From Octopus vulgaris (Eukaryota), in contig OX597815.1 in assembly GCA_951406725.2 (NCBI GenBank), forward strand, positions 136,834,001 to 136,898,000: a stretch of DNA of 64,000 nt, written 5' to 3'. Made by a program: the position numbers and the translations under genes. The notes under the pieces were generated by a model. It made no database searches, was not told where the DNA came from, and saw only the letters and a program-made list of their open reading frames with translations. Every line of letters starts with the position of its first letter. The stretch's first letter is position 1. Shown here piece after piece: positions 18,238 through 49,334 of the stretch.

Positions 18238-18402
18238 TACGACGGGCTTCTTTCAGTTTCCGTCTTCCAAATCCACTCACAAGTGTGTGGTCGGCCCAAC
18301 GCTATAGTAGAAGACATGTGTCCAAGCTGCCATGCAGTGGGACTGAACCCGGAATCATGTGGCTGGTAAGCAAGCTACTTACCACACAGTCACTCCTGCG
18401 CC
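18238..18402 (-). mobile_element. tRNA-derived SINE family A
   Basis: Reverse complement of the family A head and CORE-like region (tacgacgggcttctttcagtttccgtc...ttaccacacagtcactcctgcgcct). Confidence 0.9.
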
Positions 18403-22448: not shown

Positions 22449-23042
22449 TTATGTATAAAACAGATCAGCAAAATAAAATAAGAAACAAAAACGAATTCCA
22501 GTGAGAAGGACATTACAATTTTTGTGTGTGTGTGTGTATAAAGAGGGGGAGAAAGAGAGAGAGAGAGATTAACAAACTCAGCTATATGCGATTTTCTCTT
22601 TGGTTATGTACTGACATAAGTATTGCGAACATGTGGTTTAAGGGATCTGGTTCGTATATATATATGTAGCCTTGGTTACATTGAGACAGCTCACTGTTAG
22701 TTTTATTGACACAGCTACCTAGTTATTGTGATGGTACAAAGTAGATATGATTGCTATATCGTTGGGGTTGTAATGATTCCCAAACTTACTCTCCTCTGAT
22801 CCATTCAACATTTTTTCCCATTGCTGTTGGACTGCTGAGTTGCAAATGCGTTCATACGCCAGCAGATAAAAACGGTTGATTACATTGACACCAGTGTTCA
22901 ACTTATACTTATTTTATCACCCCGAGGGGATGAAACGTGAAGTCGAATTCGGTGGAGCTTGAGAACCTAAAGAGCAGGGCGAATAACTGCTGAGGCGTAT
23001 TTTCTTATTGTTACTATGGTAAGCTACTTACCACAGAGTCAC

Positions 23043-23761
<719 letters not shown>

Positions 23762-26590: not shown

Positions 26591-26760
26591 TCACGCAAAC
26601 TGCTAAATAGAGATAACAATAAATACAACTATATAAAAGAACAAATAAAAGAAATATTATGAGAAGTAAAGATAAGGTAATTTTCCAGGAAATTGTTACA
26701 TGATAATTAATTAAATTATATATAAGAAATGGTAAAGTTTGATTGGTAAGCAAGCTACTA

Positions 26761-28260
26761 TTATTCACATAGTTTGCCGCAAGGGCAGTACACTTCCCAC
26801 CGGTAGGTAGGTAGGTGGCACATCGACATCCGCCGACAGTCTCCCGTTTCTCTTCCTTCTCCTTTTTCTTTTTGCGGTTGCGAAAGTCGGGGCCTCCGTC
26901 GGCACATTCGGGAGGTCTTCCTCCTCTCCCACAGCCTGCACTTCGGCTGGTGAGCAACCACCACTTCTCACCTTTCTCTTTCTTTTCGTTGAAGCCGACG
27001 CCTCAACGACTTCCTCCGTTTCTCCCTGCAATGGCATCTTCACCTTTCTCTGCTCCGGGGTCTTACCACGGCCCCTTGGGCAGTCCTTTTTAATGTGGAC
27101 CGACTCCAGGCACGAGTGACACTTGGGGAGGGGGTGATCCTCAAGTATCACTGAATTCCTGGAGCCAGCCATTTTCAAAAAGTCAGGGAAAGTCATTTCA
27201 CCCGAGGTCACTGGGGTCCATAGGGTCAAAGTCGCCTTTGCACATCCCAGCTGACCGAAGGCATCACCTTCACGTCTACTATCTCCCAGGCCCCGCTCGG
27301 TGGCATCTGCCATCCACCCCACTTCGGTGCCTCCGGGGGCAGCCCACATACCCAGGATCTTATCACCCTCTTCCCACAAAAAGGGGAGAAAGACAACATG
27401 TCTTCCCCTTGCAGGCGCTGGCTAGCCAGAGTGCCAGCTTCCTAAGGGGAGTCAAACAGCAACCACACCGTTGCATATTTGACTTTCCTGGCTTATAAGT
27501 ATGTTTTAGCTGGCAAACACCTTGCCACCTCTTTTTTTATGATATCCGTATCGAAGGGGGCGAGGGCATCACGCGACCTAGAATAGGTCCGTAATACCAC
27601 CGTCCTCCTCTCAAGATTTTCAATCCATTGCTTAGGTGGGACAACCTCCCACTCTAACACACTTTTTGTATTTGCCATGTTAAAAATCAGTTCAAAAGGA
27701 GAAAGAAAGTCCAAATAAATTAACAAGAAGTCCAAAAAGAAATAAACAAGTTAGTCCAAAAATGAATATAAAAAATAAAACCCAAAGAAGACACAAAAAC
27801 AGTTCCAAAAAGAAAAAGAAGACACAAAAACAGTTCCAAAAAGAAAAAGAAAACAGAAGAATAGAGAAAAGAAAAACAGTTCACGCAGCAAACATCAATG
27901 GCCAACAGGTACTCTTGGCCAACTTCTTAGGTTCAATGGTAATCCAACAAGTTTCTTTGGCAAAATCCAGTAAGTTCGGGCGAAGGTACGCCCCCTTTTT
28001 CTTTTCCAATACAACAAAACAACAAAGAGCAACCGCCGACAGCAGGCAGAATTGCCCCGGAGCTGGGCGAAATTTATCAACACACAAACAATTACTATTT
28101 GTCAAATTACACCCAGCTCAAACGAAAACAAAACCACCTACCTCGACGACCTTATGCTGCTGTTGTTCTTTTTTCTTTCGGTTTAAAATTGGACGGAGCC
28201 AACACACTCACGTCCTCCTCAGTTCTCTGTAGGATGCAACAACAACGCGCATATGCGGTA
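26761..28260 (-). mobile_element. ORF1-only Tx1-like (HAL1-type) non-autonomous retroelement, copy A
   Basis: Disrupted ORF from ATG at 27678 (MANTKSVLEWEVVPPKQWI...RTVVLRTYSR) with zinc knuckle CHSCLESVHIKKDC and terminal CPCGK. No RT. Homologous to 44696-46849 including the 5' UTR; flanks are SINE-head sequence. Confidence 0.75.
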
Positions 28261-29039
28261 TTACCACACAGCCACTCCTACGCCTTAGTGAAAATCAGTT
28301 GCTCAACAATATTATTGTTATGGTAAATATTACACAAAAGAAAACATTTGTCGAGCAAATGGGAAATATCATGTTGGTTCATCTGAAGACTAGCTTTAGA
28401 TGCATTGTTGCATTGTGAAGGATTTGCCTAGGCAATAATCTTAAGAAACTGGACTTCACAAAGCCATAAACCACACGGCTAATTAGGAAATTGTAGTTGC
28501 AATTCGTAAATGGTATTTGAACTACGAAATTATGTAAAATAATTCGGAAGTTAGTCATTAATATTTATCAACACATGTGAGCAGATATACTAACATGTAG
28601 GCGAACAAATACGAAAATCGAAGATTGCGCAATGACATAACTTCTTGCATGTATAAATACTTGTGTAGATACATAAGTATAATTATTTTTAGTTTATACA
28701 ATATACCTATACAATAGATTCGTGACTTTGCTAGGAACTGTCTCTTAATTACGTAGGTGGAATTTTTATAATATAACGTGAAACATTATTCCAAGAAATA
28801 ATTGGATTAAAACTCTTACTCAAATGTATATTAATTCCCATGTTATATCTGATTACGAACAGTCTTTTCTAGATTTTCAAAAGTAGGTTTAAGCAAGCTC
28901 TAGCTGCTAACAATTTTGCAATATGCAATATAAATAGCACATAGCTGTGATAAATAAATATAGACTGAAGACGTTGAGAATATGCCTAAACAATGAGCAA
29001 TAAACTACAATAATTGGCAAATATTGAAAGGACACAGAA

Positions 29040-29240
29040 AATGTGTCAATAGCCAGGAGGTGTACTCCTGGGGCTACAAGCTACAGTAGGAGCCACCCTT
29101 AGGGGTTAGCTAAATTTAAGTGGCAAAAATACTTCACGATATATGTGGCACCTTGGGCAAGTGTTTTCTACTATAGCCTCGGGCCGACTAAAGCCTTGTG
29201 AGTGGATTTGGTAGGCGGAAACTGAAAGAAGCCCATCGTA

Positions 29241-29275
<35 letters not shown>

Positions 29276-29454
29276 GCGTGTGTGTGTTTGTGTGTCTGTG
29301 TTTGTCCCCCTAGCATTGTTACTTAGCGGTTCAGCAAAACAGACCGATAGAATAAGTACTAGGCTTACAAAAGAATAAGTCCTGGGGTCGAGTTGCTCGA
29401 TTAAAGGCGGTGCTCCAGCATGGCCGCAGTCAAATGACTGAAACAAGTAAAAGA

Positions 29455-29506
<52 letters not shown>

Positions 29507-29532
29507 CAGCGTACGTACACTTTGTTCTCCTG

Positions 29533-29588
<56 letters not shown>

Positions 29589-29772
29589 ACGCATATTTGC
29601 CATTTGAATATGGCTAACCCCTAAGGGTGGATGCTACTGTAGTTTGTAGCCCCAGGAAGATATCTCCTCCAGCTGGCTATAGACACACTATCTGTATCCT
29701 GTCAGTATTTGTGAAGGGAAGTCATCCTCCCCGTCTCTCGCTCTGAGATTTATCATTATATATATATATGTA

Positions 29773-29811
<39 letters not shown>

Positions 29812-30044
29812 GCACATATATATATATACACATACGTACATACATACATACATACATACATACATACATACATGCATACAGACATACACACATACACCCA
29901 TGGCTGCAACGACGATCTGGAGTTCAACTGAGGATAGGAAGCTCCGAATGACCCGCCCTTGTGTTTTCCTGTCTTTTTTTGTACCATCTAACTGTTCCGA
30001 TGTTTTGTTGTCGCCTGTTACGTTCTTGCTCCATTTTTCTTTTC

Positions 30045-30103
<59 letters not shown>

Positions 30104-30870
30104 GTATGTATGCATATATAGCGGCGTACGTACACTTTTGGTCTCCTGTATGTAAGTACATATATATATCTAAATGCTGTATGACTCTTTTGCTCTTTTT
30201 TTAGCCTCCTTCACACTCTCTTCGTTCTTTCCACTTTTTCTTTCCTCGCTCCCCTTCCCTTGCATTTCTTGGCCTTCCCTTCCATCACACTTCCCTCTCC
30301 TTTACCTCACTGTCCATTTTCTTTCATATTCTCTCTTTCTCGTTCCTCTGCCCCTACCTCTCTCCTTTCATTCCACGTGACTGGTGTTCCGCCAACCCTG
30401 ACCTTTCTGTCTTGGCTCGACTACCATCCGTGTAGCTTCTCTTATATTCCTTCCCATGACTTTCATCTCTTACGTTCCTGCCTTAAGGCTTCACTTCCAC
30501 ACACGCCAGCTTAATCCAATTTGTCCTTAGCCGAAAGGCAACTGTTGTTAAAGTCCTGTTGTTTGTATTTGTAGTTTTGTACCATTCCTCCGTTTTTTTT
30601 TTCGCCCTTCTTTTCATATACATTCGCTTGCTTTCTTCCAAGAAGTCTGGTGCTCTTAGTTTAGGGTTTCTTAGGGCCGGCCAGATTAGAGCAGTCTGGA
30701 GTGTAACCGGCAGAAACTGGAACGATGATCTGGAACTCGACTGAGGATAGGAAGCTCCCAATGTCCCATGCTTGCTTTTTCCTGCCCTTTTTTGTATCGG
30801 CTAACTGTCCGGATGCTTTGCTGTCGCCTCTTACGTTCTTGTTCCATTTTTTTGTTTTCTTTATATATAT
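29040..30870. mobile_element. PLE-like remnant cluster: inverted pair (29040-29138 / 29587-29688) and direct pair (29903-30050 / 30717-30862)
   Basis: Visible inverted and direct repeats. The direct repeats carry CTGAGGA-taGGAagcTCC and are separated by a CT-rich tract like the 3' region of the full PLE. Confidence 0.55.
29143..29457 (+). mobile_element. tRNA-derived SINE family A, 5'-truncated
   Basis: GTGGCACCTTGGGCAAGTG...AAAGGCGGTGCTCCAGCATGGCCGCAGTCAAATGACTGAAACAAGTAAAAGAATA. Confidence 0.9.
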
Positions 30871-33800
30871 ATATATATATCTGTGTGTGTGTTCTTTTGA
30901 CGAAAAACCTCAATTCGGTGCCCCAGCACTGCTGCAGTCTGATAACGAATACAAGTAATGGATAATAAATTCCCCTTCACGTAGAAAGGGCCACCATTAT
31001 AAAAGAAGAGTAATCATCATTCTTTCTTCGATCTTTTTCCACACACGTTACATGAATGTATAAGTGCCACATAACTGTGTGTGCGTGTGAGTGTGTGTGC
31101 TTGTGTACGTGTGTGCGCGCGTGTGTGTGTGTGCCCGTGTGTATGCTTTTCTGCCAGTGCTAAATATATATTCATGCATTTTACCTTTTTTTCTTATAGT
31201 TCATGAACAATTACGATACGGATTACATTTGGATTCGCCTCGGATTTAGCAGTGATTTACACTTAGGATTCATACTGTGAACTTGAAGGTAGGTAGACAT
31301 TAATGTAAATACATTAATATATATGTGTACAGATATATATATATATATATTGTTGTATTTCTGGATGGCCATTTTTTTCGCGAAATAAGCACACGCACTA
31401 TATATTTTTTCTTCACTCGTTTATTACTGTTCTTATTTTATTATTTTAACTCATGTCCATCTCTAGAGCAAGAACAGATACGACAACGAAAAGTATATAT
31501 ATTTATATATATCTCGTTTTAGTATTTGTTTTGCAAGATTCCTTATGTAGATTCGTGTGTTGAAGCATATTTTATTGTGTCGGGGGAGAATCATTCTCTT
31601 TTAGTGCCTTATTAATTTAACACACCAATTTCCTCATCATTTAGTTTTGCTATTGGAAAGGTTGCAAGTCGCAACGAAAATTTTAGCAAATATAAATAAG
31701 TAAATGAGTGGAAATCGGTGAGGCACTAAAAGAGTACGACCCTTCCCGTACATAAATATATATATATATATATATAAGTACGCATCTATGTTAGTGTTTA
31801 AGTGCTCATCTTCGCGGGTGATGTAGCTATGCATCCAAGTTATGCATCCAGAAATTATTAGCTACCTGTGGGACTAAAGCATTATGCAATACTTCAAAAG
31901 CATATCCCCAATATAAAATATTAAAAACATTTAAAATAAAGCAAGCGCACACTTACTCGTTATAAGGAGAAAACTATTGTTGGTAGAATATTTTTGGAAA
32001 ATACTTTGTAAAACATTGGCTTCGCAGGCTATCTAAAATTAATTGTGATGGGCAAAATAAACCTTTCAGATTAGGGAAAATCTGTTGCTCAACAATGTTA
32101 TTGTTATGATAAATATTACAGATAAGAAAACATTTGTCGAGAAAATGGGAAATCTAATGCTGATTCATCTGAAGACTAGCTTTAGATGCATTGTTGCATT
32201 GTGGAGGATTTGCCTAGGCGGTAATCTTAAACTAGACGTCACAAACCCATAAACCACACGACTAAATAGGAAATTATAGTTGCAGTACGTAAATGGTATT
32301 TGAACTATGAAATCATGTAAAATAATTCGGTAGTTGGTCATTAATAATTGTCAACACATATGAGAAGATATACTAACATGATCAAATACGAAAATCGAAA
32401 ACCTCGCAATGTCATACGTGCTTGCATGTATAAATACTTGTGTAGATACATAAGTATAATTCTTGTTAGTTTATACAATATACCTATAAAACAGCTTTGT
32501 TTCTGGGCTAGGAACTGGCTCTTAATTAGGTGGAATTTTTAAACCATATCCCCACGTTAGTTTAATATCTGCAAATTATCAATTTGAAAAGATCAATCAG
32601 TAAATAAAACGAAAATATATATGCATTTATACATATACATACACACATGTATATACATATACATACACACATATATATGCGCTCACACACACACGCACAC
32701 ACACACACATATATACATACATACATACAATTGTAGTTTTAGATTTTTAGCCTTTTCACCATACCTGTTGTTGTTTCTTAGTTTTCTCCCGAGTTATCTG
32801 TTATTGGAACTTCTGTTTTGTATTTGTAAACATCCTTGAAACGTAGCAATCCTTTATTTTGTATACTAACATTTCGTGATTATTCATATTAATTTTCCGA
32901 AATTATTTCACGTTAGTTTTAGTATCCCTACAGGGAATATTTTGTTATAGGTTTCTAGCATAATACGTCCCTCACCGACATGTGTTTTGGTAAATATAGG
33001 CTTTCTATGTGGCGTGTACTTTAAACACACCATCATCATTATCATCTATATCAAGATGCCAAAAGAATATAATTATTGTTTTATTTCACTTATATATATA
33101 TATATATATATATATATAATCCGGGTACAAGCATGGTACACAGCATTGCTAGAAATAGGAATCAAATGGCTCAAAAACCACAGTAAACCACTTATATACA
33201 CACGTCTGAATTCGTGGAAACGAGTATATAGAAGCCATCTTAACAATAGCCAGTAGAAATCGCAAATATGTTGTAGACGTACTCATATCACGTGATTCTG
33301 GACCCTGTGATAGCACTTAGTCTTCGTCTTTGAGTATTCCTGCCGAACTAAACGTTCAGAAACAAGCGAATTATGTATTCATCTATGTATGTATATATAT
33401 ATATATATACATAAATACATACATGCGTGCATGTATACATACATGCGTAGATAATTCGCTTGTTTCTGAACATTTAATTTTCAATGCTTCGTATATCACT
33501 AAGCATTATATCCCCATGACCATCAGTTATTTAAGAACATACTGAATCCAAGAAAATTCATTTTCCACATGAACCACATTGTCCAATTATACCGACACGA
33601 AGACATATGGATGTACACTAAAACCCATTTCGGAGAACCTATGAATATTTTATATTCTGCCGAGATATGCAAAATTGTATTGGTTTATATCCTACGCGCA
33701 CGGAATTTGTCAAATTTAGTAAATTACAATAAGACTTATACCTTAACGATGTACGAATAATTTCTCGCAATATGATCTCACGGTAGCAGGACAACTTCCT

Positions 33801-34539
33801 GAAGTTACTCACGCTTGGTAATTACAGTAAATAGCACGTAATTACCGTCAGCATTTGACTAAATCTCTTATATTAACAGGAAGGTAATATGTATCAATTT
33901 AGGCTATAATCCCCACTTTCCTTTTTAATAACGTAATAAATGGTATAAGCATATTCCACTGCTATTGTTGTCGTATGGTTAGGTCTGGAGACACTCAACA
34001 GAGAGACCAAAACTACAAATATAGATTGTCACTGAGCGACGACGAATATATCATTATTTACATTTAAATTTTGGTAGTTTCCATTTTAGCAAACTACTAC
34101 TTGGTTTTATTCCTCTGCATCTCAATATACACATTAATAGAACAAAAACATTCAAGTTATGTCATGTGTTCTTTCCCACTTCGGTTGATTCTCTAACATA
34201 TTTCCAAGGGATGTAAAATTCCTTCATTTCTACATATCAATATTCGACTGACAATCATCATCAACGCTAGTAAAATATTTGCTTCTATGACTTCCAACAT
34301 TCTGTTATCATACATTAGCATCAGTTATACACACATTGAATATTCCCACAGGATGTCCTTCAAAGTTCATCTTATATTTCATGTTCTCACAATTTGCAAT
34401 CACAAATTCTCTATCACATACCCTGCAGATACATGTCTAATCTTCGGCAAAACTAGTGCGCACGTGATCTCAGTAATTTAGCAAGACAAGAACACATAAA
34501 AACTTCGAAGTACTCCTACTCATGGAAAGGCTAAAATGT

Positions 34540-35435
34540 CAATAGAGAAGCTGTTTAATGCAAGGAAGTTCCAAGCCCTGCGCTACCGGCACACAAAGGT
34601 AAACGACATGCAGACTGGATACACTGGCCCGGGAAGAATTGTAATTCCTGAGTCAAAATCAGTGCGTGACTTGGGCATTGACATGAGCAATGATGCATCT
34701 TTCCAAGTGCATATTACAAATTTGGTAATAAAATGCAGACGGCTAGCTGGATGGATTCTCCAAACTTTCAGAACAAGAGAGAAGGAGACACTGATGGTCC
34801 TTTGGAAGACATTCGTCCTCAGCCTCTTAGACTACTGCTCCCAACTATGGTCACCACACAATATAAAGTTAACAGCAGAACTCGAATAATCCAACAAAGC
34901 TACACTAAGAAGATTGTCTCAATGCAGCATATCAGCTACTGGGACAGACTGAAAGTATTAAAATTCTTCTCCCTGGAGCGAAGGCGGGAGAGATATGCAG
35001 TGATATACATCTGGAAAATCCTGGAGGGTCTTGTCCCGAATTTTGGTATTGAAAGATACCCCAACAGCAGAACAGGGCACCACTGCATGGTGCCAAAGAT
35101 CCCAACATTACCATCAAAATACAGGACCAAATACTGCAACAGCTCGGATTTCAGGGGACCACAGCTCTTCTATATCCTTCCTAAATGCCTGAGAGACCTG
35201 CATGGTGCGGATGCGGGTTTCTTTAAAACTAAACTGGATTACTTCTTGTCAGGGGTTCCAGATGAACCTACCTCTCGGCAGGAAACACAGATGCGGGCAG
35301 CGGCGTCGAACTCCCTTGTTGATCAAATGCCACGTATCAGAGATGATTTCACATACTAGTGTAGCTCATTCAACGGTGGTGCCCCAGAATGGCCGCAGCC
35401 TTCGGGCTGAAGTATTTTTAAGGATTTAAGGATTT
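34540..35435 (+). mobile_element. 5'-truncated CR1/L2-group LINE (RT C-terminus and 3' UTR)
   Basis: VRDLGI...LDYCSQLWSP...YWDRLKVL...SLERRRERY...WKIL.GLVPN...LDYFL..VPDEP with one frameshift; ends in (TTTAAGGA)n-like repeats. Confidence 0.92.
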
Positions 35436-35564
35436 ATATATAAATTTGTATATGTACATATCTATATATACATATATATATATATTTAAATATATATATA
35501 GACATATATATATAAATATATATATATATTTAAATATATATATAGACATATCCATATCTGTGTA

Positions 35565-35603
35565 TCTTTCTGTTGAAGAGTGTAGGCTCGAAACGTTAAA
35601 GAC
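35565..35603 (+). ncRNA. Minimal type I hammerhead-like motif in 5' pLTR
   Basis: TTGAAGA-G tgtaggct C-GAAA-CG-TTA with palindromic AACGTT; minimal hammerheads in pLTRs are an established PLE feature. Confidence 0.55.
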
Positions 35604-36342
35604 TTGTTTTATTTATATTTCCTGAGCGCCATACTAATACAATTGTTTGTTTGTTTTCCACCTGCCTTCGTCTTTTGTCTATTTTCATAAAGCTTCCCGT
35701 TATATATTATGCGCTCACGTGGTCTCACTTTCATCCTATATTCTACCAATACCACTATCAACACTTACCTCTACCTTGGATTTTCTTTACCTCTTGGATA
35801 CTTACCATTGGCTGCACCTCTCTTTCGCGGATCAAAGTGACTTTGTTATTGATGTGAAATCCTTAAAAAATATACCACGACGTCTACACATTTCTAACCT
35901 TGAACTTTCAACCTTGAACTTGTTCGCATAAACTGTCCCGTTTGTTGTATTTTTATTTTCTCATATATTACCACTTTTTTACATTCATTTCATGCTTTCC
36001 ACAGTTTCCTGCATTTTTGTTCTCCTTTCCGTCTTTCTTCCCTCTCTGGATGTCCATACTCTGTTTCCTCTGCCTGCCCCCCCCTTTTTTTGTCTCCCCC
36101 TCTCTCTGCTTCCCTTCTTTCTTTCCCTTTTCCGTTTGCCCCGTCTTTTCTGCCCCTATCGCTTACTTATCTAGTTTTTTCATACGATTATTATTTTTTT
36201 GTTTTTTTTTTAACGTTTGTTTTTTCCCCTTTTTTTTCGCTATCCTTTTTTATCTATTTTTTTCAAACGATAATTTTCTGTTTTTTGTTTTTTGTTTTTT
36301 TTTTTGTTTTTTCGAACGTTTGTTTTTTTCCGCTATCCCATC

Positions 36343-39170
36343 ATGCCGGATCCTAGGTCCTACCTCCTCACCCTCCATCATCGTTTGAAGGATCATCTCC
36401 GTTAACTTCCCGTATACTGCCTTCAGCCGTCCGTTAATCTCTCTCTACTTCTTTTAAAAACAACCCGCTTCTCTAGCCATGTCTCTTTCCTAAGCCGCTG
36501 CCTACATCACCGACTCATCCCTAAAGGTTTCCGCCTCCACTTCCACCCTGCTCTCCACTCGGATTCTTCCATCTTACCCATACTCCGCACCACATCTTAC
36601 CGCCTTATGCGGGCCACCATTCGCTCCAATCTCTCTAAACTACATACCATCAACCGCCTTCTTCCTCCTGCTTTCTCCACATTCTTCTCCTCTCTGCCGC
36701 CTCTCTATGCTCCAAACACGCTACGCTTCATTATCCATTTGAATCAACTCTTCCATCAATTTCTTTCTGATACCAAACTTCGTAAACTCCAATCACTCTT
36801 CCATTCCCGATAGGCTCCATCCACCCATACCTAACCCCACTGCCCCTCCCTACAACCCCTTCTCCCCTCCTGATAGGCTCCATCCACCTACACCTAACTC
36901 TACTCCCCCCAAACCACCACCCCCACACACACCTCCCCAATCCCTTCCCCTCAGACCTCCCCGAGACCTACCACCCCTCCTACTTCTATTCCACCCACCC
37001 CTTCTCTACTTCCGTCTGTTGTTACCATTCCCCCGATCTTCCCTCTCTGCGGCTGAACGCTCCGTCCTTGGTAGGGGTCTGCGTTTCATCCCCCTCACTC
37101 CATCCTGTAAGGAATTCCAGACGCGAGTTGATGTCCACAGCTTTGTGCGCCGCGTCCGGTTGGGTGCGCATTACCACGACTCGCCACCCACACCCAACGA
37201 AGAGGACTGCTTCACTGGCCTGGGCCGCCGACCATCCCCGTGGACGCCTGCCCCTGGCCAGTTCCTAGCAGTGGATCTTTTCGCGGGCGCTTGTCAGCGT
37301 GCATTGGAGCGGTTCAACTTCTCCAGGCGCCAACGACACCTCAACATCTCCCCGGCTGAGCTCTTGGCTCTTCGTTCCCTCCAACGGCGCGCTGACATTA
37401 TCATCAAACCGGCTGACAAGGGTGGAGCTGTAGTGGTGTGGCGCGCGGACCTCTATAGGGCCGAGGCTTTCCGCCAACTCAATGACACCTCCTTCTACGC
37501 CCCTCTGCCCTCTAACCCCACACGTAGCTACCAACAGACGGTATCCTCTACTGTCCGCGACCTCATCTCGTCCTCCCGTCTCCCCCACACCGCATCCAAC
37601 CTAATTGTGCGAACCCCACGTACCCCCACCATTTACTTCCTCCCCAAAATCCACAAACCCAACAACCCTGGCCGCCCCATTGTCTCCGCCTGTAACTGCC
37701 CCACGGAGCTCATCTCTAAATACCTCGACCGTGTCCTTGCCCCCCAAGTGGCATCTCTTCCCTCCCACATCCACGATACCAACCATGCTCTCCGGCTTTT
37801 CAACTCTTTCTCCTTTCCTCCCGGCTCCTCCAAAATCCTTTTTACTATGGTCATCCAAAGCCTCTATACTGTTATCCCTCACCACGAAGGACTGCAGGCC
37901 CTTCAACACTTTCTTGACCTCCGCTCCAACCCTGTACCTGACACCTCCACACTCATTCGTCTGGCCGAACTTGTCCTTACTCTGAACTGCTTCGCGTTCG
38001 CGGGCGAGTTCTACCATCAGATCTCGGGAGTGGCCATGGGAAAGCGAATGGGCCCCAACTATGCGAACCTGTTCGTTGGCTATATTGAGGCCCAAATATT
38101 CTCTAATTTCACTGGTCCCACTCCTGAACTATATGGTCGTTACATTGACGACATTATCGGTGCCACCTCACTCTCCCGTGAACATCTAGATTCCTTCCTC
38201 TCTTTCGTCCAATATTTCCATCCAGCCCTCCACTTCACTTCCACTATCTCCAACACCTCTGTCTCCTTCCTCGACATTTTGGTTAGCATTCTTCACTCCA
38301 CTCTTACCACCTCCATTCACTACAAACACACAGACTCACACTCATACCTCAACTTCTCTTCCTCCCACCCAGAACACACCAAGCTTTCCATCCCCTAGGC
38401 TCTGTAGTGACGACCATGACTTTGAGACTCAGTCTCAACGTATGGCTCACCACTTCACCCTACGTGGATACCCCCTCACCACTATCCACACCGCCCTTGC
38501 TTGAGCACGGTCCGTGGACCGTGTATCTGCTCTCTCTCCCCGAACCCACCCTTTAGTCTCCCGCCTCCCTTTCCCCCTCACTTACCACCCCACGACCCTA
38601 CCTCTCCAACGCACCATTCTTCGAGCTTTCCGTCATCTCCGGTCCGACCCGTCCACTTCACACCTCTTCCCTAACCGACCTCTCCCCTCTTTCAAACGAG
38701 CCCACAACCTTCGAGACCTTTTGGTCCATAGCTCCTTCCCTGACCCTACCTCCCAACCCGGCTCGTTCCCCTGCTCCCGCCCACGTTGCCGCACTTGCCC
38801 TTACCTCTCCAACACCACCCTCCTCACTAGCACCCATCATCGACCCTATCCCATCATCCACTCCTTCACCTGCACCTCCAGGAATATTATCTATTGCGTC
38901 TCTTGCTCTCTCTGCCATTCCTTGTACATCGGACAAACGGGACGCCGCTTGACTGACCGGTTCGCGGAACACCTTCGTGACATCCACCTTGCGAACGACA
39001 CACCGGTCTCACGCCATTTCCGCTCCACCGGTCACTCCTTGCAACACCTATCTGTTTTCGGTTTGTCCTTACACAGAGGCCATCCGGTTTCCCGTTTGCG
39101 CCGTGAACAGGAATTAATCTTCTCTCTTCGCTCTTATACGCCATTTGGTCTCAACTCTCCCCCTCCTCAT
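36343..39170 (+). pseudogene. PLE ORF (N-terminal domain, reverse transcriptase, zinc finger, GIY-YIG endonuclease), disrupted
   Basis: FLSRCLHHRLIPKGFRL; IKPADKGGAVVV; PKIHKPNNPGRPIVS; GVAMG..MGPNYAN; RYIDD; CSRPRCRTC; IIYCVSCSLCHSLYIGQTGRRLTDRFAEH; PFGLN. It has stops and frameshifts, an apparent deletion near 38396 and TMVIQSLYT in place of the usual D. Confidence 0.93.
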
Positions 39171-39807
39171 CTAACCCCCTCTCCCCTCCTCACCTACCTT
39201 TCCCCCCCGACCCCTACTTCTTCAGTCCTTCATCCTTTCACCCCTACTCCCCTTCCCTTCTTCCCTCTTTCTCCCTCCCTCCTTCCCTCTTAACCGTCCC
39301 TCTGCTCCCTCACTCCCCTTCTCTTCCCCCTCTCCCTCTTTCCTCCTTCCTCCTCCCCTCCTCCTCCCCTTCCTTATCCCCCCTCTCTATCCCCCTCTCC
39401 CCCCTCTTCTCCTCTCTCCACACTAATACGTACTAATACATACTAATACATACTAATACATACACCAACCCTATACATACACACGTCCAGACCTCTCATA
39501 CGCACTAATACTCTCTCATACACATACACACACACACACCCTTATACATACTAATACATACTAATACATACACCAACCCTATACATACACACGTCCAGAC
39601 CTCTCATACGCACTAATACTCTCTCATACACACACACACACACTTATGTTGGAGCTGGTCATTCAACCCTATTATCCACCCTATTATCTCCCCTTATTTC
39701 GCTCTCGCGTCTCATGTTTGATCTTTGACCAGATCGCCATGTTGATTCGTTAGTTACTGCACGCATTTTTTTCTCTCCTTCTTTCTGTGTTTTTTTCCCT
39801 CTGTGTA

Positions 39808-39846
39808 TCTTTCTGTTGAAGAGCGTAGGCTCGAAACGTTAAAGAC
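39808..39846 (+). ncRNA. Minimal type I hammerhead-like motif in 3' pLTR
   Basis: TTGAAGAGCGTAGGCTCGAAACGTTAAAGA, with tcttt/aaaga as possible stem I. Confidence 0.55.
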
Positions 39847-40075
39847 TTGTTTTATTTATATTTCCTGAGCGCCATACTAATACAATTGTTTGTTTGTTTT
39901 CCACCTGCCTTCGTCTTTTGTCTATTTTCATAAAGCTTCCCGTTATACATGTCTATATCTATCTATATATAGATAGATATACATATATAAATACACATAT
40001 ATATATTTATATATATACATATGTATCTAAATAAGTAAATATACCTATATGTACATATATATATATATATATATA

Positions 40076-40454
40076 CACTACCGTCAGAAATTAATTAGCA
40101 CCCTTGATTTGTTCTTCACTCAAGGTATGTGCTGTCACCTAGTGGCCATATCTCGAACTATTGCTTTGTTGCGAGTTCACTGTTGCGCAGAACGATGACG
40201 TAACTTTGTTTGCAGAGCAGTTTGAGAGTCTACAGCCTTATGATGTTGACATAGCAGTGCAACAACAACTTGGAGTGCGGATGCAGACAAATCTTCCTTT
40301 GTTTAATAGATATAGGTAGCGCCTCGCAAGGACCGAAATAACACCATACTAAGTTTTCTCATCGCGTAAGACGTTTTGAACAGCTCATAGGTTAATTGAT
40401 TTAACCTATTTAATGTAGAAATTTGAGAAGTGCTAATTAATTTCTGACGCGAGT

Positions 40455-40455
<1 letters not shown>
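40076..40455. mobile_element. Tc1/mariner-type MITE
   Basis: TIRs cactaccgtcagaaattaattagcac / gtgctaattaatttctgacgcgagtg, flanked by TA. Confidence 0.85.
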
Positions 40456-40487
<32 letters not shown>

Positions 40488-40673
40488 CATATGTATAAGT
40501 ACCTATATATGTAATTATATATATATATATATATATATACATATGTATAAGTACCTATATATGTAATTATGTATATATATATATATATACATATATAAGT
40601 ACGTATATATGTATACATATCTATACACACATATACACACACACACTTATCACACTTATATATATATATATAT

Positions 40674-40721
<48 letters not shown>

Positions 40722-40726
<5 letters not shown>

Positions 40727-42454
40727 CGATCTGGGCTGTATCAGTGATATCAACCCCCAACACACTATATTGGACATAACGTTTAGTGCCCCTGATGTCT
40801 TAGCGGCGATAAATGAAATAAAACACAATTCAGTAGTAGGCCCCGATAGGTTCCCTGCTTGTGTCCTGAAGGTGTGTCGACACCAACTTGCATCTCCCCT
40901 TGCTAATCTGTGGAGAAACTCACTGGATTCTGGCTATATTCCAAAAAACCTTCTGTCCCAGTCTGTTGTCCCAGTTTTCAAAAAGGGAAACAAGTCCCTT
41001 GCAGTGAACTACCGTCCGATCTCACTCACCTCTCATATCATCAAGGTATTTGAGAGGGTGGTGAGATCTCGAATAACACAATTTCTGGAAAGCAACAGAC
41101 GGCTGATCCCTAACCAACATGGGTTCCGTAATGGAAGGGACCGCCTAACGCAGCTCCTGCATCACTTTGATGACATTTTGAGAGCTTTGGGAGAGGGCTC
41201 CAACACCGATGTCATCTACCTTGATTTCAGTAAGGCCTTCGACAGGGTCGATCACAAGATCCTATTGAAAAAACTATCCAACATTGGTGTCTCTGGAAAG
41301 TTACTGAAATGGATCAAGTGTTTCCTGACAGACAGATCTCAACATGTTGTAGTTGAAGGGGTAAAATCAAGCCCAGCCAAAGTCAGTAGTGGCGTTCCGC
41401 AAGGCACTGTGCTGGGCCCACTTCTTTTCATCATCTACATTAATGACATCAATGACATCATCAAGCACAGCAACATAAAAATCTTTGCAGATGATTCCAA
41501 GCTACAGAAGGTCATAAATGAGGCGAGTGACCGGACATGCCTTCAGTCAGATCTACTGGCTGTTATCCAATGGGCAGAAAAAAACAATATGCTGCTGAAC
41601 GAGGATAAATTTGAGTTAATCCACTTTGGAAAAGAGGATGCCCTGAAACTCCCATACTCCCTTCCTTCAGGTGAAACTCTCGCGGCGTCCAACAACATCA
41701 GAGACTTGGGAGTAATTGTGGACAACAACATAAGCTGGGCCACTCATATAAACACCAAAGTTGACATGGCCCGCAGAATGTGTTCCTGGATTCTCAGAAC
41801 TTTCCAGTCGAGAGATATCCACACCATTATCCTTCTCTTCTCCACTTTTGCCCGACCCCACCTTGAATACTGTTGTCCACTGTGGTCTCCCCACACAATA
41901 CAAAGTATCATAAAAGTTGAAGCACCTCAAAGGGCAATCACAAGAAAGATAGATGGCATGACAGGCCTCGACTATTGGGGTCGACTAGAAAAGCTAAAAC
42001 TTTATTCTCTCCAACGTCGTCGTGAGCGCTACATCATCTGCATGATGTGGAAAATATTCCATCAGCATTGCCCAAATGATGTTGGCATCACCTTTAAGGT
42101 ACATCCAAGGCTTGGGCCCCGTGCCATCCGCCCAAAACAAAAATCGCACTCTCATCTCATAACAACAATACGGCACAATTATTTCACCTCAATTGGCCCC
42201 GCTCTCTTTAACATTACACCAAAACACATTAAAACAGAAACTGACCCTATAGGGTTCAAGAAGTCTTTGGACAGATTCCTTCAAGAAATCCCGGATAAAC
42301 CCCCTACACCCGGATATGTCTCTGTAAACAATAACTCTCTACTTGAGTGGGCCATAGTGCCCAAATTCTGACTTGAAAGACTTCACCAGGTGGTGCTATT
42401 AAGTTAGACATGGCCTGGGCCAATAATGGCCGAAACCTATCAAAGTATCAAAGT
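40722..42454 (+). mobile_element. 5'-truncated CR1/L2-group LINE with open RT frame (40722-42371), inserted in (TA)n
   Basis: 549-aa uninterrupted ORF: NYRPISLTS, QHGFR, YLDFSKAFD, GVPQGTVLGPLLF, FADD, RDLGV, LEYCCPLWSP. Short 3' UTR ends in (TATCAAAG)2; no endonuclease domain. Confidence 0.95.
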
Positions 42455-42930
42455 ATATATATATATATATTTATACATATATATATACTCTAATTGCACC
42501 ACTTACAGAACTATTTACGTCCCTTACAAATTATCTTTTTACTCGGGGACTTATTATCCCAACACCGTTTGGTAGTCGGGGCGCATTCAAAGCCAGGGAA
42601 CAGTAATGAAGATACCGTTATGACCTTAAATCTCTTAAGCAATTCAAAATAATGACTTTTATTCCTCTTAATTCTACATTGGTTCATCTATTAGTATATA
42701 TTTATTGCTACTTCTCATTGAAAAGCCATTATTGTTTTGATATTCAATGTACTTCTTACTTCCTCCATATCTTTTCCACGTGTAGTTTGTATTTTCTTTT
42801 TGAAACATATTGCTGTTATACACACACACGCACAAATATATATATATACATATATACGTATAAATATACTCCATTCTTTCATATACGTATAAATATACAT
42901 ACATATATATATATATATATATACATATAG

Positions 42931-42971
<41 letters not shown>

Positions 42972-43449
42972 CATATATGCATACATATTTATATACATAT
43001 ATGCATACATATATATACACATATATGCATACATATATATACACATATATACATACATATATATACACATATATACATACATATATATACACATATATAC
43101 ATACATATATATACACATATATACATACATACATATACACATATATACATACATACATATACACATATATACATACATACATATACACATATATACATAC
43201 ATATATATACACATATATACATACATATATACACATATATACATACATATATATACATATATACATACATATATATACATATATACATACATATATATAC
43301 ATATATACATACATATATATACATATATACATACATATATATACACATATACATATATATACACACATATACATACATATATATACATACATATACATAC
43401 ATATATATACACACATATACATACATATATACAACATATATATATATAA

Positions 43450-44660
43450 AATCTAAACACGAGAGCTTCATCCCTCAGAAAACATCTAGACACATGCCGG
43501 AACACCGACAATAGCATATCAGTCACAACTGAGTCCGATGAAAAACATTTGGATAATTTAAGAATTAAGGAATCTATAATCATACACAGAGGAGCCTGGC
43601 TCCGCTGCCACCAAGACCTTCACGGATAGTATTCTCTATCCAGTGGGGTTCAAATCCCGGTAGCAAACCACTGACCCAAACCCTCGTCAATTTTTTCCCA
43701 CAATAAGTGGGAAGAAACAAAATTTCTTTACCCTCAATGGGCTGGCTCGCAATACTGCGAACCTCCTCTGGGGTATCAAACAGCAACCAAACCGTTGCAT
43801 GTTTGACTCCCCTAGAGATATACGTAATGGTTGGCAGATGTTCCGCCAACTCCTGCTCAATCATCTGCTTGGAGAAGATGGTAATGGTGTCGAGAACCTT
43901 TGAATACGTTCTAATCACCACCGTCCTATCATCTTGCTGCCAGATCCATTCTTTAGGTGGGACAATCTTCCACTCTACAATATTATCCGTATTTTTTTTG
44001 CCATGTTATAAAGTAAAAAATTAAAAAGTCCAAAACGATAGTTTACAAAAAGGAAAGAGAAAATTCAAAAGGAAACAAAAGGGAAGAAGAAAAAAGCAAA
44101 CAGTTCAATATTTAAAAAAGTCACAATAGAAGAAGAAAACAGCTAAAAAAAACATAACAAAAAATCTTCTGGGCATTCAGATACTCCAAGCCCTATGGTA
44201 CTTCAACTAGAACCTGGACTGCTCCACTTAAAATACGGCTTTCCAACGTAGTTGTAAAATACACACTATTTACAAACAGCGAACTACTTTTGGTGGCAGG
44301 ATACGTCACCAAAGTATATTTCACACAATGAGAAAAAAATTTCATTTCATGCGAACAGTTGAAATTCAGCTTTCCAATAGTAAAAACATACACTGTTAAA
44401 AAGTTTTGGTTGAAGGATAAATATACTTCTCACAAGGAGAAAGAATTTTCATTTAATGTGAACCATATTGCTGAACTGCAAGTAGACCAACATTCTGAAT
44501 CCAGTGAGGATTCCTTGTTTGTAAAAAAAATATAAACACAGACAACGACCCTCACTGGGTCCAAGAGAATAAAGTCTTACCTTGCAGCAGCTTCTTTTGG
44601 CAGGCTAAACACTGCCGGCTATCTTCTTCACTGCACAATACAATGACACATGCGCACACT
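43450..44660 (-). mobile_element. Related Tx1-like ORF1 element, copy C (divergent, truncated before the zinc knuckle)
   Basis: EWKIVPPKEWI...RTVVIRTYSK...ISRGVKHATVWLLF...EGKEILFLPTYCGKKLTRVWVSG is homologous to copies A and B; ATG at about 44004. Confidence 0.7.
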
Positions 44661-44695
44661 GATAACAGAGACTCATGGGAAAAATGTAAGCTACT

Positions 44696-46849
44696 TTATT
44701 TCATAAAATTTGTCATATAGACAGTACAAATATTGTGTAGCTTTGCGGGCTGGACAAACAAATTAATGAATGAAAATTAAATAAAATGAATAAATGAGAG
44801 ACGAAACCCAACACCTGCCGTTTGGATTTTTCTCGAAAACATTTTCTTTTTTTAAAAATCAATATAAGGTTTCAAACCTCTTACAAGGAGGCACTAAAAC
44901 CTCTTACAAGATACTTTTTTTCATTTAATTTGCCACAAGGGCAGCACATAGATTTACAACAATTCTCCTTGTCAGGTCCCCCAAGCAATATGACTTGCCG
45001 CCTGCAGACAACTCTGCAACGACAAGTCGGGGCCTGCAAAGAAGAAAGCAAATTCTTCCTTGTCAAAGGTCGCTTCGACCTTTGACAAAATGTTTTCCGT
45101 TACTACCTCCGCAGCCACCTACGGAGGCCATATCGGGCTACTTGGGCAGACCGAGTACACACGTTCTCAGTCACCCAAGCCGTCCAAAAATTTACTCACC
45201 GTACCTCCCTTGTGGTAAAGGAGGAGAAACACCTCCTCTTCACAGGAAGGGACCTCACACTGCTCCGTCATTGGCACACTTCCCACTGACGGAGCCCTTT
45301 CCGCAGATGGCACACATCCCACCTGCGGCCCCGTCGGCGGCCCAGGAGCATCCGCCGACCGTCCTCTGCTCCTCTTTTTCCTCTTTCGTTTTGAGGCTGC
45401 AGGAGCAGGGGGCTACGTCGACAGACGCGGGGTCGCTACCCTCCTCCGCCGCCTGAACATTCTTTGGTGAGCAACCATTGTAACTCACCTTTCTTTTTCT
45501 TTTCGTGAAGCCAAATTCCTCCACGACTTCCACCGTCTCCCCTCCAATGAGGGGTCGGCGGGCACCTTCTCTTTCTCATGCACCAGGGCCTTACTACGGC
45601 CCTTGGTACAGTTTTCTCTTATATGGCCGGGCTCGAGGCACAGGTGACACTTGGGGAAGCGTCCCTCAAGTATCACCGGGTACCTGTACCAGGCCATTTT
45701 TAGAAAGTCTAGGAATGTCATATCTCTTACGGCCACCGGGGTCCACAGGGTCAAAGTTGCCTTTGACTCCTCCCAGTCGACCACAGGAGCAACATCCAAA
45801 CTCAATAGTCTGACCTGCTATCCCCCAGGCCTCGCCGGATGGTATCTTCGATCCATCCCGCCTCCGTGCCCGGGGGCAATCCGCAGACCCAGGCTCTTCT
45901 TATCTTCCTCCCACAATAAGTGGGGAGGAACAAAATCTCTTCTCCCTCAAGGGGCTCGCTAGCAAATCTGCCAGCTTCCTCAGGGGTGACAAACAGCAAC
46001 CAGGCCGTTGCAAATTTGGTTCCCCGTGAAATAAATTTTATAGTTGGCAGGTAGTCTGCCAACTCTTTCTCTATCACGCTCTTGTCGAAGAAGGCAATGG
46101 CACCACACGACCTAGAATAGGTCCGTAGTACTACCATCCTCTTCTCAAGATCTTTAATCCACTGTTTAGGTGGGACCACCTCCCACTCCAAAACAGCGGC
46201 ACCGTTTGTTTTCGCCATGTGCAAAAAAGTCTTAAAAGTTCAAAGAAAGTTCAAAGGTCAAAGAAGATGTAAAAAAAGGAACACAAAAAGTTAACAGAAA
46301 CAGTAAAAAAATAAGTAAGTCCAAAAAATAAATTAACAGTTCAAAAAGAAAGAAAAAATCAGGAAAGATAGACGAAAAGTAGAAAAACAATTCACACAGC
46401 AAAAATCCAATTTCCTGGCCAGCATGTACTCCCGGCCTAATGTGAATAGGGTCCTTGGCATAAATTTGTTTTTTTCCGGTAATTGGTAAAATAAATCCAA
46501 ACACAATACTGGCTACAGCCAACGGTAACTGCAACAGCAACTCTAACAGGTTCTATTCGGGCGAGGATACGCCCCATCACATTTTTTTTAAATGAATCCA
46601 AAAATTCACAATAAATTCACAATATACAAAAACAGCAGCCGCCGAGAGCAGGTAAAATTGTCCCAGAGCTGGGCACAATTTACTGAAAAAATAATTCGCA
46701 CGCAATAAATTATGCCCAGCTCACAACAAACAAAATCACCTACCTCGACAACCTTCTCTGTTTTTGTTCTTTTTTAATTTTAGGACGGAGCTCAAAGCTC
46801 ACGTTCTCAATGTTCACTGGCAAGAAGTCGACTTGACGCGCATGTGCGG
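44696..46849 (-). mobile_element. ORF1-only Tx1-like (HAL1-type) element, copy B
   Basis: ORF from ATG 46218 (MAKTNGAAVLEWEVVPPKQWI), knuckle CHLCLEPGHIRENC, Cys-rich tail ending CPCGK, ~200-bp 3' UTR ending GAAATAA. No RT; AAGCTACT occurs on both flanks. Confidence 0.8.
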
Positions 46850-46913
46850 AAGCAAGCTACTTACCACACAGCTGTTATTTTATATATCAATACAATAATA
46901 GCAATTATATAAT

Positions 46914-47036
46914 ACACAAGGCTTTGGTGGGCACAGAATTGTAATGAAAGGGAATTGCCCAACGTGCCGCACAATGGGATTGAACCTAAGTCGACATGAT
47001 TGGAAAACAATCTTCTGAAACACACAGCTACACCTA
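46914..47036 (-). mobile_element. Old SINE family A fragment
   Basis: cacaaggctttggtggg...ttgcccaa...gggattgaacc...cacacagc. Confidence 0.6.
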
Positions 47037-47717: not shown

Positions 47718-49055
47718 CAGGGGTTGGACAAAATAATGGAAACACGTTATAATTTTAAACAAATATATTTTGATATGGGGTGATACCGCCTTTGGCAGTA
47801 ATTACAGCTTGAATTCTACGAGGTAATGACTCATACAATGCTTGAATTGATTCCAAAGTAATTTTTGCCCATTCTTCAGTTAAAACAGTCTCCAGTTCTT
47901 GTAGTGATGATGGTGGAGGATATCGACTCCATACTTCTTTTTCTAAAATGCACCATAAATGTTCACTAATACTGATATCTGGGGACAGTGGCGGCCAGAT
48001 AAGATGTTCAACTTCACTAGAATGTTACTCGTGCCATTTAATAACAACTTTAGCTGTGTGAATTGGTGCATTATCATCCTGAATTAATACGTTTCCTTCC
48101 GGAAACAGTTCCGCAACTACAGAATGAATTTGATCAGACGAAATGCTTAGTCTTGGCTTAATTCTGCCATGAACAGGAAAGGAAACCATTAGGCCGGCGG
48201 ACTTCCAAGATATAGCCTCCACCCAGATCATCACAGATCCTCATCCATGTTTAACAGTTGGAAGGCAGTCTGGGTCAAATGTTTCTTTTGGCTTTCTCCA
48301 CATGTATACTCGGCCGGTGGTCGGAAATAAGGTAAAAGATGACTCATCCGAGAAAATAATATTCTTCCACTGCTCTAGGGACCAATTCTGTAGGCTTTTA
48401 CTCCACGCTAAACGCTTTGCAACGGCTTTGTGCTGATCCCGGCAATCAGTTTTTGAGGAAACTGGGTTTTCGAGGCAGTCATTAAGATCTGCAGTAATTT
48501 TTGGAGCTGTACCATTGTGATTCTTTCTAACAATTCGCGTAAGAATCCGACGGTCTCCATCTGAAAGTTCTGGTTTTCTTCCGGAGTTTTGTTTCGACGA
48601 GGAGGATTTTTTCCCTCTTTCTCAAAGGCTGTCAATACTTTCGAGACAGTATTTTTTGATACCCCAACATTTCGGCTGTTTTCATTACGCTAGCGCCTAC
48701 CATACGAGTACCAACAATCTGACCGCTTTCAAAGTCCGACAGATCTGTCATTTTAATGAATTTTAATTACCTTTTTCTGATGATATCTGAAAAGAAACTG
48801 CATTTTCAGCAAAACATATTAAGCAACACATAATAAATAAAAAAAATAAATAAACGGAGTGGCTGTGTGGTAAGTAGCTTGCTTACGAACCACATGGTTC
48901 CGGGTACAGTCCCACAGCGTAGCACCTTGGGTAAGTGTCTTCTACTGTAGCCTCGGGCCGACCAAAGCCTTGTGAGTGGATTTGGTAGACGGAAACTGAA
49001 AGAAGCCCGTCGTATATATATATATATATATATATAGGTCCCGGGTTGAGTCGGG

Positions 49056-49108
<53 letters not shown>

Positions 49109-49334
49109 TGTGTCTGTGTTTGTCCCCCCAACATTGCTTGACAACCGATGCTTGTGTTTACGTCCCCGTAACTTGGCGGTTCGGCACGACAAAAGGTGGT
49201 GCTCCAGCATGGCCCCAGTCACATGACTGAAACAAGTTAAAGAGTAAAAAAAGAGTAACCTTTTGACGGTTTTATAGATATTTCAAAATGATGATGCTAT
49301 GATGCTAGGTGTTTCGATTATTTTGTCCAGCCCA
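47718..49334 (-). mobile_element. Degenerate Tc1 transposon interrupted by a SINE
   Basis: TIRs caggggttggacaaaataatggaaacac / gtgtttcgattattttgtccagccc. Minus-strand motifs IFSDES, QDDNAPIHTAK and WPPLSPDISISEHLW indicate a DD34E-type transposase. Confidence 0.92.
48856..49256 (+). mobile_element. tRNA-derived SINE family A (young copy) nested in Tc1
   Basis: GGAGTGGCTGTGTGGTAAGTAGCTTGCTTACGAACCACATGGTTCCGGG...GGTGGTGCTCCAGCATGGCC...TGAAACAAG. Confidence 0.93.

Follow-up and report, generated by a model that had tools for sequence, protein, structure and literature searches.

Probable ORF1-Only Retroelements at One Fixed Site in the Head of an Octopus SINE

Introduction

As described in the available parts of PMC4494074, the Tx1-Mar long interspersed elements (LINEs) of crocodilians and their SINEU passengers target Mariner-N4_AMi, and other Tx1 elements that target transposable elements include Tx1-8_Crp and Tx1-4_AMi, which have long terminal repeat (LTR) targets, and Tx1-9_AMi, which has a Harbinger target. 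The same parts, together with those of PMC3706591, place Tx1 (Tx1L) of Xenopus in Tx1D, Keno in U2, Dewa in the tRNA-Leu spacer and Mutsu in 5S. LINE derivatives that carry only open reading frame 1 (ORF1) are represented by HAL1 (half-L1), HeT-A and Ag-Sponge (PMC5753468 and PMC5786205, in the parts available). In this study, a stretch of 64,000 nucleotides from Octopus vulgaris (GCA_951406725.2, contig OX597815.1, positions 136,834,001 to 136,898,000), referred to below as the window, was analyzed for two elements, A and B, which code for an ORF1 protein (ORF1p) only and lie at the same site in the head of a tRNA-like short interspersed element (SINE).

Based on the junctions in the window and on contigs from public sequencing runs, we propose with a probability of roughly three in four that A and B are ORF1-only non-LTR retroelements, shown to be multi-copy for B, that insert at one fixed site behind the A box of the SINE and are likely copied in trans by an enzyme-bearing LINE, probably of the Tx1/L1 clade, that nicks GTGGTA^AGTAGCTT. 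Thirteen recently active L1-Tx1 families have been reported in O. vulgaris, and the available part of that paper (PMC13282606) makes no mention of targets or nesting. A SINE-targeting LINE in octopus was not found in the literature searched, Repbase and Dfam lying outside that search and possibly holding these families.

Elements at the SINE Head

The empty target is represented by an intact SINE copy whose A-box-like TGGCTGTGTGG (48860-48870) and B-box-like GGTACAGTCCC (48903-48913) we take from the tRNA promoter consensus, and the insertion site lies 2-3 nt behind the A box. A first-pass annotation of the window had placed both 3' junctions of A and B at the same site of this SINE head, intact at 48856, and the junctions read as it described, all of them in the same orientation as the SINE. 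ARAGORN and Rfam gave no tRNA gene and no Rfam family anywhere in the window; as the flanks are SINE, identity with Keno or Dewa was rejected. The features are as follows.

26743..26759 (-): SINE head 3' piece AGTAGCTTGCTTACCAA beside A; the remaining SINE is absent at the A locus
26761..28260 (-): element A, with a 5' untranslated region (UTR) of ~580 nt, a broken ORF1, a terminal hairpin and an A-rich end
26775..26787 (-): terminal hairpin of A (TGCC-CTTGC-GGCA)
28261..28285 (-): SINE head 5' piece of 25 nt, SINE start through A box, with 92% identity to the intact SINE head at 18396(-)
43586..44685 (about) (-): element C, with a 680-nt 5' UTR and the first 140 codons of ORF1 (ATG 44004)
44686..44695 (-): target remnant AGTAGCTTAC between D and C
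44696..44906 (-): fragment D, 211 nt, non-coding, the 5'-truncated 3' end of another, commoner element, with a ATGAAATAA end
44907..44915 (-): target remnant AGTATCTTG between B and D, 8/9 identical to SINE AGTAGCTTG
44916..46849 (-): element B, with a ~630-nt 5' UTR, a broken ORF1, a hairpin (44943-44931) and an A-rich end
46850..46872 (-): SINE head piece upstream of B, A box plus 12 nt beyond the nick site, the upstream copy of the inferred target-site duplication
48856..49260 (+): intact SINE copy, the empty target, with the insertion site at 48872/48873

On the minus strand, the A locus reads AGGCGTAGGAGTGGCTGTGTGGTAA, then 28260-26761, then T-AGTAGCTTGCTTACCAA, and the upstream SINE head ends in GTGGTAA. 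The ORF1 of A starts with an ATG at 27678, contains in-frame stops and one frameshift, and ends with a frame that stops at 26765; ~400 bp of the 3' ORF1 region of B are missing from it. No outer target-site duplication abuts A, the best shared 8-mer lying 33 and 6 nt from the junctions. Because A and B are only 71% identical across ~1 kb (BLASTN), they represent separate subfamilies or old copies.

The second locus is a stack. The first-pass annotation had described 44696-46849 as a single element, and its outer junctions stand, the B region starting after GCTGTGTGGTAAGTAGCTTGCTT and the composite ending before AGTAGCTT at 44695-44688; the interior is composed of B (46849-44916), a 9-nt target remnant (44915-44907) and the 3' fragment D (44906-44696), so that the order is SINE head, B, AGTATCTTG, D, AGTAGCTTAC, C. 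The ORF1 of B runs from an ATG at 46218 through two predicted RRM domains, a CCHC knuckle, a basic tail and a further C-terminal region to ~44990. A third ORF1 copy, C, sits directly behind D, beyond the region first described. Its ORF1 is 66-71% identical to those of A and B, and its 5' UTR is largely unrelated to theirs; C lacks its 3' part, being broken off at ~43586, and the ORF1-only assignment covers A and B. All three ORF1s are interrupted or truncated.

C stops against another high-depth repeat, where 18 contigs of public run X7 leave at 43590 (43480-43590), and its 5' UTR contains a 45-bp direct repeat (82%; 44312-44356 and 44419-44463). A GCGCATGCGC-like palindrome, which we take to be NRF1-like, is located near the 5' end of A (28260-28248), B (46838-46849) and C (about 44661-44648), all on the minus strand.

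A, B and D share one 4-bp terminal hairpin at their 3' ends, always at the same distance from the target. When up to 2 mismatches are allowed, the window contains three copies of a 20-nt terminal motif (the end of A, 44948-44929 and 44728-44709), and AGTA(G/T)CTT follows the hairpin motif exactly 13 nt downstream in 3/3 cases, the 13 bases being A-rich. At up to 1 mismatch, AGTAGCTT has a background of 52 in 128,000 positions, and the chance of a coincidental hairpin-target register is ~1e-7 when only two independent events are counted. The stems are TGCC..GGCA in A and B and TGTC..GACA in D (44723-44711, TGTC-TATAT-GACA), which amounts to one both-sided change among the four pairs. A 'CPCGK' protein tail, which had been read at the end of A and B, is likely this hairpin rather than protein, because in both elements its reading frame differs from that of the neighboring ORF1 segment, and in D it reads CLYDK.

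The duplications measure ~0-1 nt at A, 9-12 nt at B/D and up to ~15 nt for C in other copies, with an invariant 3' junction. A fixed 3' junction with a variable 5' duplication is as expected of target-primed reverse transcription, other features of whose products are also present, namely an A-rich 3' end, 5' truncations and no terminal repeats. The window contains three clear SINE 3' ends, and the target follows none of them. A solitary SINE-head fragment at 23021-23046 (-) has no element; it ends in TACCA with one GCTT unit, like the D-C remnant.

The same orientation of all junctions could also be accounted for if the elements were transcribed from the RNA polymerase III (Pol III) promoter of the SINE, as the first-pass annotation had suggested, or were steered to the site by base pairing between RNA tail and target; shortly before the hairpin, D has AAGCTAC and A has CTACCTACC, both antisense to the target. 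Borrowing of the promoter is unlikely because an insertion splits the A and B boxes by at least 1.5 kb and 20-22 stretches of at least four T are present in each ORF1 element, the earliest at nt 73 (A) and nt 115 (B); reasoning of the same kind was applied to SINEU in the available part of PMC4494074. The tail complementarity was equalled by 162 (A), 1281 (B) and 338 (D) of 2000 shuffles and is not beyond chance. Both variants are thus regarded as extremely improbable. A Pol III-transcribed composite SINE was likewise rejected, since adjacent A and B boxes and an interior free of T runs are required for it and neither was found here.

Other Copies in Public Sequencing Runs

Contigs from four coded public runs were compared with 43480-46950 and 44580-45060; the contigs are short, their depth is not a copy number, and the listed results comprise 24 of 356 loose ends and 15 of 101 joints. 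All 30 bins were covered in all four runs, at summed depths from hundreds to tens of thousands and mostly at 80-95% likeness, which makes these multi-copy families. At the end of D, contigs leave at 44688 into the SINE body (reverse of GCTTACCAACCACATGGTTCC) in 16, 13, 11 and 22 contigs of the four runs, and at the end of B they leave at 44907 into the SINE body toward the B box in 8, 7 and 7 contigs (at least three of the four runs, among the rows listed). Up to 30 letters of these continuations are shown, of mixed sequence and with an agreement of 0.63-0.79, and the listed loose-end consensuses at both 3' junctions all continue in SINE-specific sequence. The flanking SINE halves of other copies, whose completeness had been in question since the first-pass annotation, thus continue on their 3' sides up to the B box region for both ends. 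Depth across the junction of D is, as a rough estimate, 0.80-0.93 of the value expected if all D-type ends crossed the target. In the available part of PMC4494074, target preference is taken as one sequence type in >20% of flanks; here the SINE head flanks 3/3 window ends, and the depth ratio, a rough proxy rather than a copy count, also lies above that value.

The 5' sides lead to the same site. Four of the 15 listed joints link the SINE head to the start of an element, either complete or 5'-truncated: 44679-46850, seen in all four runs, sets the start of C directly on the SINE head, the form before B and D; 44681-46853 is a further joint of this kind; and 44597-46850 and 44948-46855, in two of four runs each, represent 5'-truncated forms. 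Contigs with the first 12 nt of B on the SINE head diverge before 46838, which suggests a further family at the same SINE site. Other contigs contain the hairpin at 44934-44953 with different upstream sequence (loose ends behind 44952/44953 and joints back to 44739), from which it follows that several more families share the terminal hairpin.

The first-pass annotation had proposed the SINE head as a sequence-specific target of non-autonomous elements, and the contig loose ends and SINE-head joints bear this out; it had also allowed that the flanks were carried along from a donor locus. On that account the SINE-head pieces would be cargo, acquired by 5' and 3' transduction, and insertion would occur at random sites. 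It would fit A, whose flanking SINE sequence amounts to only 25 + 17 nt, and the upstream piece of B, which lacks the SINE start, and the join of B and D demonstrates that an element can inherit read-through over a remnant of the target. However, the SINE is the target and not the cargo because other copies run into the SINE body in mixed sequence and 5'-truncated copies still abut the head, a test used against hitch-hiking in the crocodilian Tx1 work (PMC4494074, in part). Three unrelated upstream sequences (A/B, C and D) at the same site, the lack of an abutting outer duplication around A and the solitary SINE-head fragment without an element also speak against cargo. This explanation is largely refuted for B, C and D, for which transfer from a donor locus is not supported, and overall we hold it to be very unlikely.

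The B-D Junction

Behind 44907, D has other upstream sequence in 8 contigs of run X1 and 4 of run X7, and its depth is ~3-4 times that of B; D is therefore taken to be the 3' end of another element. Contigs crossing from B through the remnant into D (44885 to 44988-45000) have depths of 525, 77 and 603, compared with ~50, 8 and 45 for ordinary pieces, and a join at ~10 times the single-copy depth points to tail capture. In addition, a loose end before 44885 in two X7 contigs matches D at 26/30 letters by eye. Thus, the B+D chimera was probably amplified as a unit after read-through across the 9-nt remnant.

ORF1 Protein and the Absence of ORF2

The first-pass view that A and B encode an ORF1 without reverse transcriptase (RT) or endonuclease holds: the longest stop-free frames are 218 and 175 aa, respectively, Pfam searches of the ORF1 pieces gave no RT or apurinic endonuclease-like (APE) domain, and all six frames across the 3' part of B and D gave no RT, APE or ORF2 zinc-finger family. 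Among proteins, B is matched best by P0001 of Octopus sinensis, which shares 71% identity with the N-terminal part of B, and more distant relatives occur in O. bimaculoides, O. vulgaris and Argonauta. An AlphaFold model of P0001 from a 32-sequence alignment (mean pLDDT 81) contains two RRM-like domains; both halves of residues 14-186 match RRM domains, the best match being the La RRM (Z 9.0, root mean square deviation 2.6, 81 aligned). Tandem-RRM proteins are among the fold matches, and no L1 ORF1p structure is among those listed. The CCHC knuckle noted at first pass was recovered as zf-CCHC in 15 of 32 aligned members, and CCHC and ZCCHC3-like clusters of the atlas were matched at 0.90-0.92 (ZCCHC3-like 0.90). 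Transposase_22 was absent among the 25 of 30 Pfam families listed for the 32 members; mammalian HAL1 proper, with an ORF1 of that type, was rejected. On the model, ORF1 is of type I (RRM-RRM-CCHC) and is predicted to bind RNA.

The C-terminal region of B gave one chance-level Pfam match (E 0.034) in another frame. Five distant octopod ORF1 relatives (P0002, P0016, P0019, P0030 and P0041) appear to share a short C-terminal domain without a Pfam match, which was not detected in B; a shared domain was rejected when the profile of these five did not match the C-terminal region of B. In P0014 (O. sinensis XP_029639579.1), the first 45 residues of this ORF1 are joined to an integrase core, which is probably an annotation chimera.

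The mismatches between the ORF1s of B and C fall 34/24/61 by codon position, and this third-position excess indicates that purifying selection acted on ORF1 during the divergence of the lineages. In other copies, diverged contigs chain the ORF1 core of B to the hairpin (45277-45514, 45104-45410, 45165-45410, 44921-45057 and 44930-45040), with no single spanning piece, and on this basis the missing ORF2 of B is probably a family trait; B may have been amplified in ORF1-only form, the observation here being this chain of overlapping contigs. Alternatively, A, B and C could be simple deletion products of full-length target-specific LINEs, in which case no ORF1-only lineage would exist and selection on ORF1 would date from autonomous parents, which the third-position excess fits equally well. 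The ~400 bp missing from A, the lost 3' part of C and the 13 recently active L1-Tx1 families (PMC13282606, in part) agree with such an origin. In contrast, B carries no ORF2 remnant, the diverged contigs of other copies chain ORF1 to the hairpin, and ORF2 is missing from both of two elements that are only 71% identical; as a weak additional point, the Logan contigs that carry ORF1, from five distant clusters, all measure 1.70-1.93 kb. We therefore consider simple deletion unlikely and retain the ORF1-only reading.

The clade of the partner and the exact nature of the target leave room for another variant, in which the targeting is the same and either the helper belongs to another LINE clade with an APE or a restriction-like endonuclease (RLE), or insertion is really directed at the D loop of tRNA genes, with the SINE being struck by likeness only. 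Type I ORF1 with RRM and CCHC is consistent with Tx1 in non-mammalian animals and yet not exclusive to it (PMC5203782, in the part available), and A, B, C and D contain no RT by which a helper could be placed. The insertion site is also where an A-box-like motif ends, and in genuine tRNA genes this region is used by Dada transposons (PMC8869645, in part); however, the SINE-specific loose-end consensuses at both 3' junctions argue against the D loop. The variant as a whole appears quite unlikely, and a Tx1/L1-clade partner acting on the SINE is preferred.

Searches beyond the window gave no partner. RT and APE were absent from the 17 scanned of 46 matches; a search for fused ORF1-ORF2 forms among 228 candidates of 245-2000 aa gave one match, P0001; profile searches gave 0/4990 among long proteins (1403-4005 aa only) and 2/7999 at near length, all three being weak blanks. 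Metagenome scans for related loci gave 0/595 confirmed stretches for P0001 and 0/201 for the distant relative P0050, and viral and GTDB contigs gave 0 matches to the SINE-head pattern.

Other Elements in the Window

A Penelope-like element at 36743-39293 (+) contains an RT (Pfam RVT_1, E 1e-5) and, behind it, a GIY-YIG-like frame (E 0.044). Another LINE is represented by a 590-aa RT frame at 40599-42371 (+) (RVT_1, E 1e-30), and a LINE-like 3' fragment is present at 34500-35359 (+); no hairpin motif or SINE-target junction was found at these two LINE pieces. The frames at 6246-6629 (+) and 7343-7783 (-) have identical translations and form an inverted duplication of ~400 bp, ~700 bp apart. A frame with FSDESSF at 48241-48621 (-) presumably resembles a Tc1/mariner transposase fragment.

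Proposed Mechanism and Significance

In the proposed pathway, the element would be transcribed by Pol II from its own 5' UTR, and ORF1p, with its two RRMs and CCHC, would coat the element RNA. The ORF2p of the partner, a site-specific APE LINE acting in trans, may then recognize the hairpin and the A-rich end and prime reverse transcription at the nick in the SINE head. Cleavage of the second strand 0 to ~15 nt downstream could give rise to a duplication of AGTAGCTTGCTTACC that varies in length. As the site is restored by every duplication, new insertions would land beside earlier ones and form stacks. The B+D chimera could have arisen by read-through from B over the 9-nt remnant and into D, and it would then be amplified as a unit.

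Several observations weigh against this account. The partner is the first of them, since none bearing ORF2 was found and the source and clade of the enzyme are inferred. The SINE flanks of A are short (25 + 17 nt) and the duplication around it is at most 1 nt; A may be a one-off deletion, the public-run contigs having been compared with the B/D/C region only. All read data consist of short contigs, and no listed piece spans an element. On their short side the SINE-head joints comprise just 20-23 letters of 80% likeness, a weak class when taken alone that agrees with the loose-end data, and in the B-D contigs the alignment to D covers only 23 letters. The hairpin is just 4 bp long and is known from three sequences, and, as the 5' duplication of B (12 nt) is longer than the B-D remnant (9 nt), more than one order of insertion in B/D would be compatible with the data.

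A broader and more tentative interpretation, to which we assign less than even odds, is that the SINE head may act as a landing site that renews itself and is shared by a guild of passengers, both ORF1-only and non-coding, all belonging to a single site-specific LINE. The passengers would stack there, read-through would swap their 3' tails, as in B+D, and new families would be assembled at the target; the ORF1-only form would then be a long-lived octopod lineage and not repeated debris.

SINEs normally parasitize LINEs, whereas here LINE-derived elements appear to land in the promoter region of a SINE, which would inactivate SINE copies while sparing genes. The known list of Tx1 targets (DNA transposons, LTR elements, snRNA, 5S and microsatellites) would be extended to a tRNA-like SINE, and protein-coding passengers would be added. 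The join of B and D with its internal target remnant would provide a dated, testable case of 3'-tail exchange between retroelement families. Furthermore, identification of the partner would allow the sequence requirements of a new site-specific endonuclease to be read from hundreds of natural insertion sites.

Comparison with Known Systems

The comparisons below refer to the available parts of the cited papers. Like Tx1-Mar and SINEU (PMC4494074), the octopus elements occupy one defined position within a different transposable element, the target is used in common by non-autonomous passengers, and tandem copies sandwich a target-site duplication. Unlike in that system, the target is a tRNA-like SINE head beside the A box, the passengers encode ORF1p, a multi-copy chimera keeps a target remnant inside, and the helper is inferred only. 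Sequence-specific insertion of a non-LTR element in a multicopy sequence is also shared with Tx1L, Keno, Dewa and Mutsu; those elements are, however, autonomous with two ORFs, and they insert in a DNA transposon or in host RNA genes and not in a SINE. Dada DNA transposons (PMC8869645 and PMC3706591) are also found at the Pol III A box region of tRNA-like sequence, but they are DDE transposons in real tRNA genes with an unrelated mechanism.

In structure, A and B resemble HAL1 in having a 5' UTR, ORF1 and a 3' end without ORF2, and they code for ORF1p alone, as a HAL1-like way of working implies; HAL1 has been proposed to move in trans, with ORF1p aiding transposition. In contrast to mammalian HAL1, the ORF1 here is of the RRM-RRM-CCHC type and not Transposase_22, and insertion is limited to one SINE site. 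By analogy, the octopus elements would thus work like Tx1-Mar and SINEU and be built like HAL1, HeT-A and Ag-Sponge.

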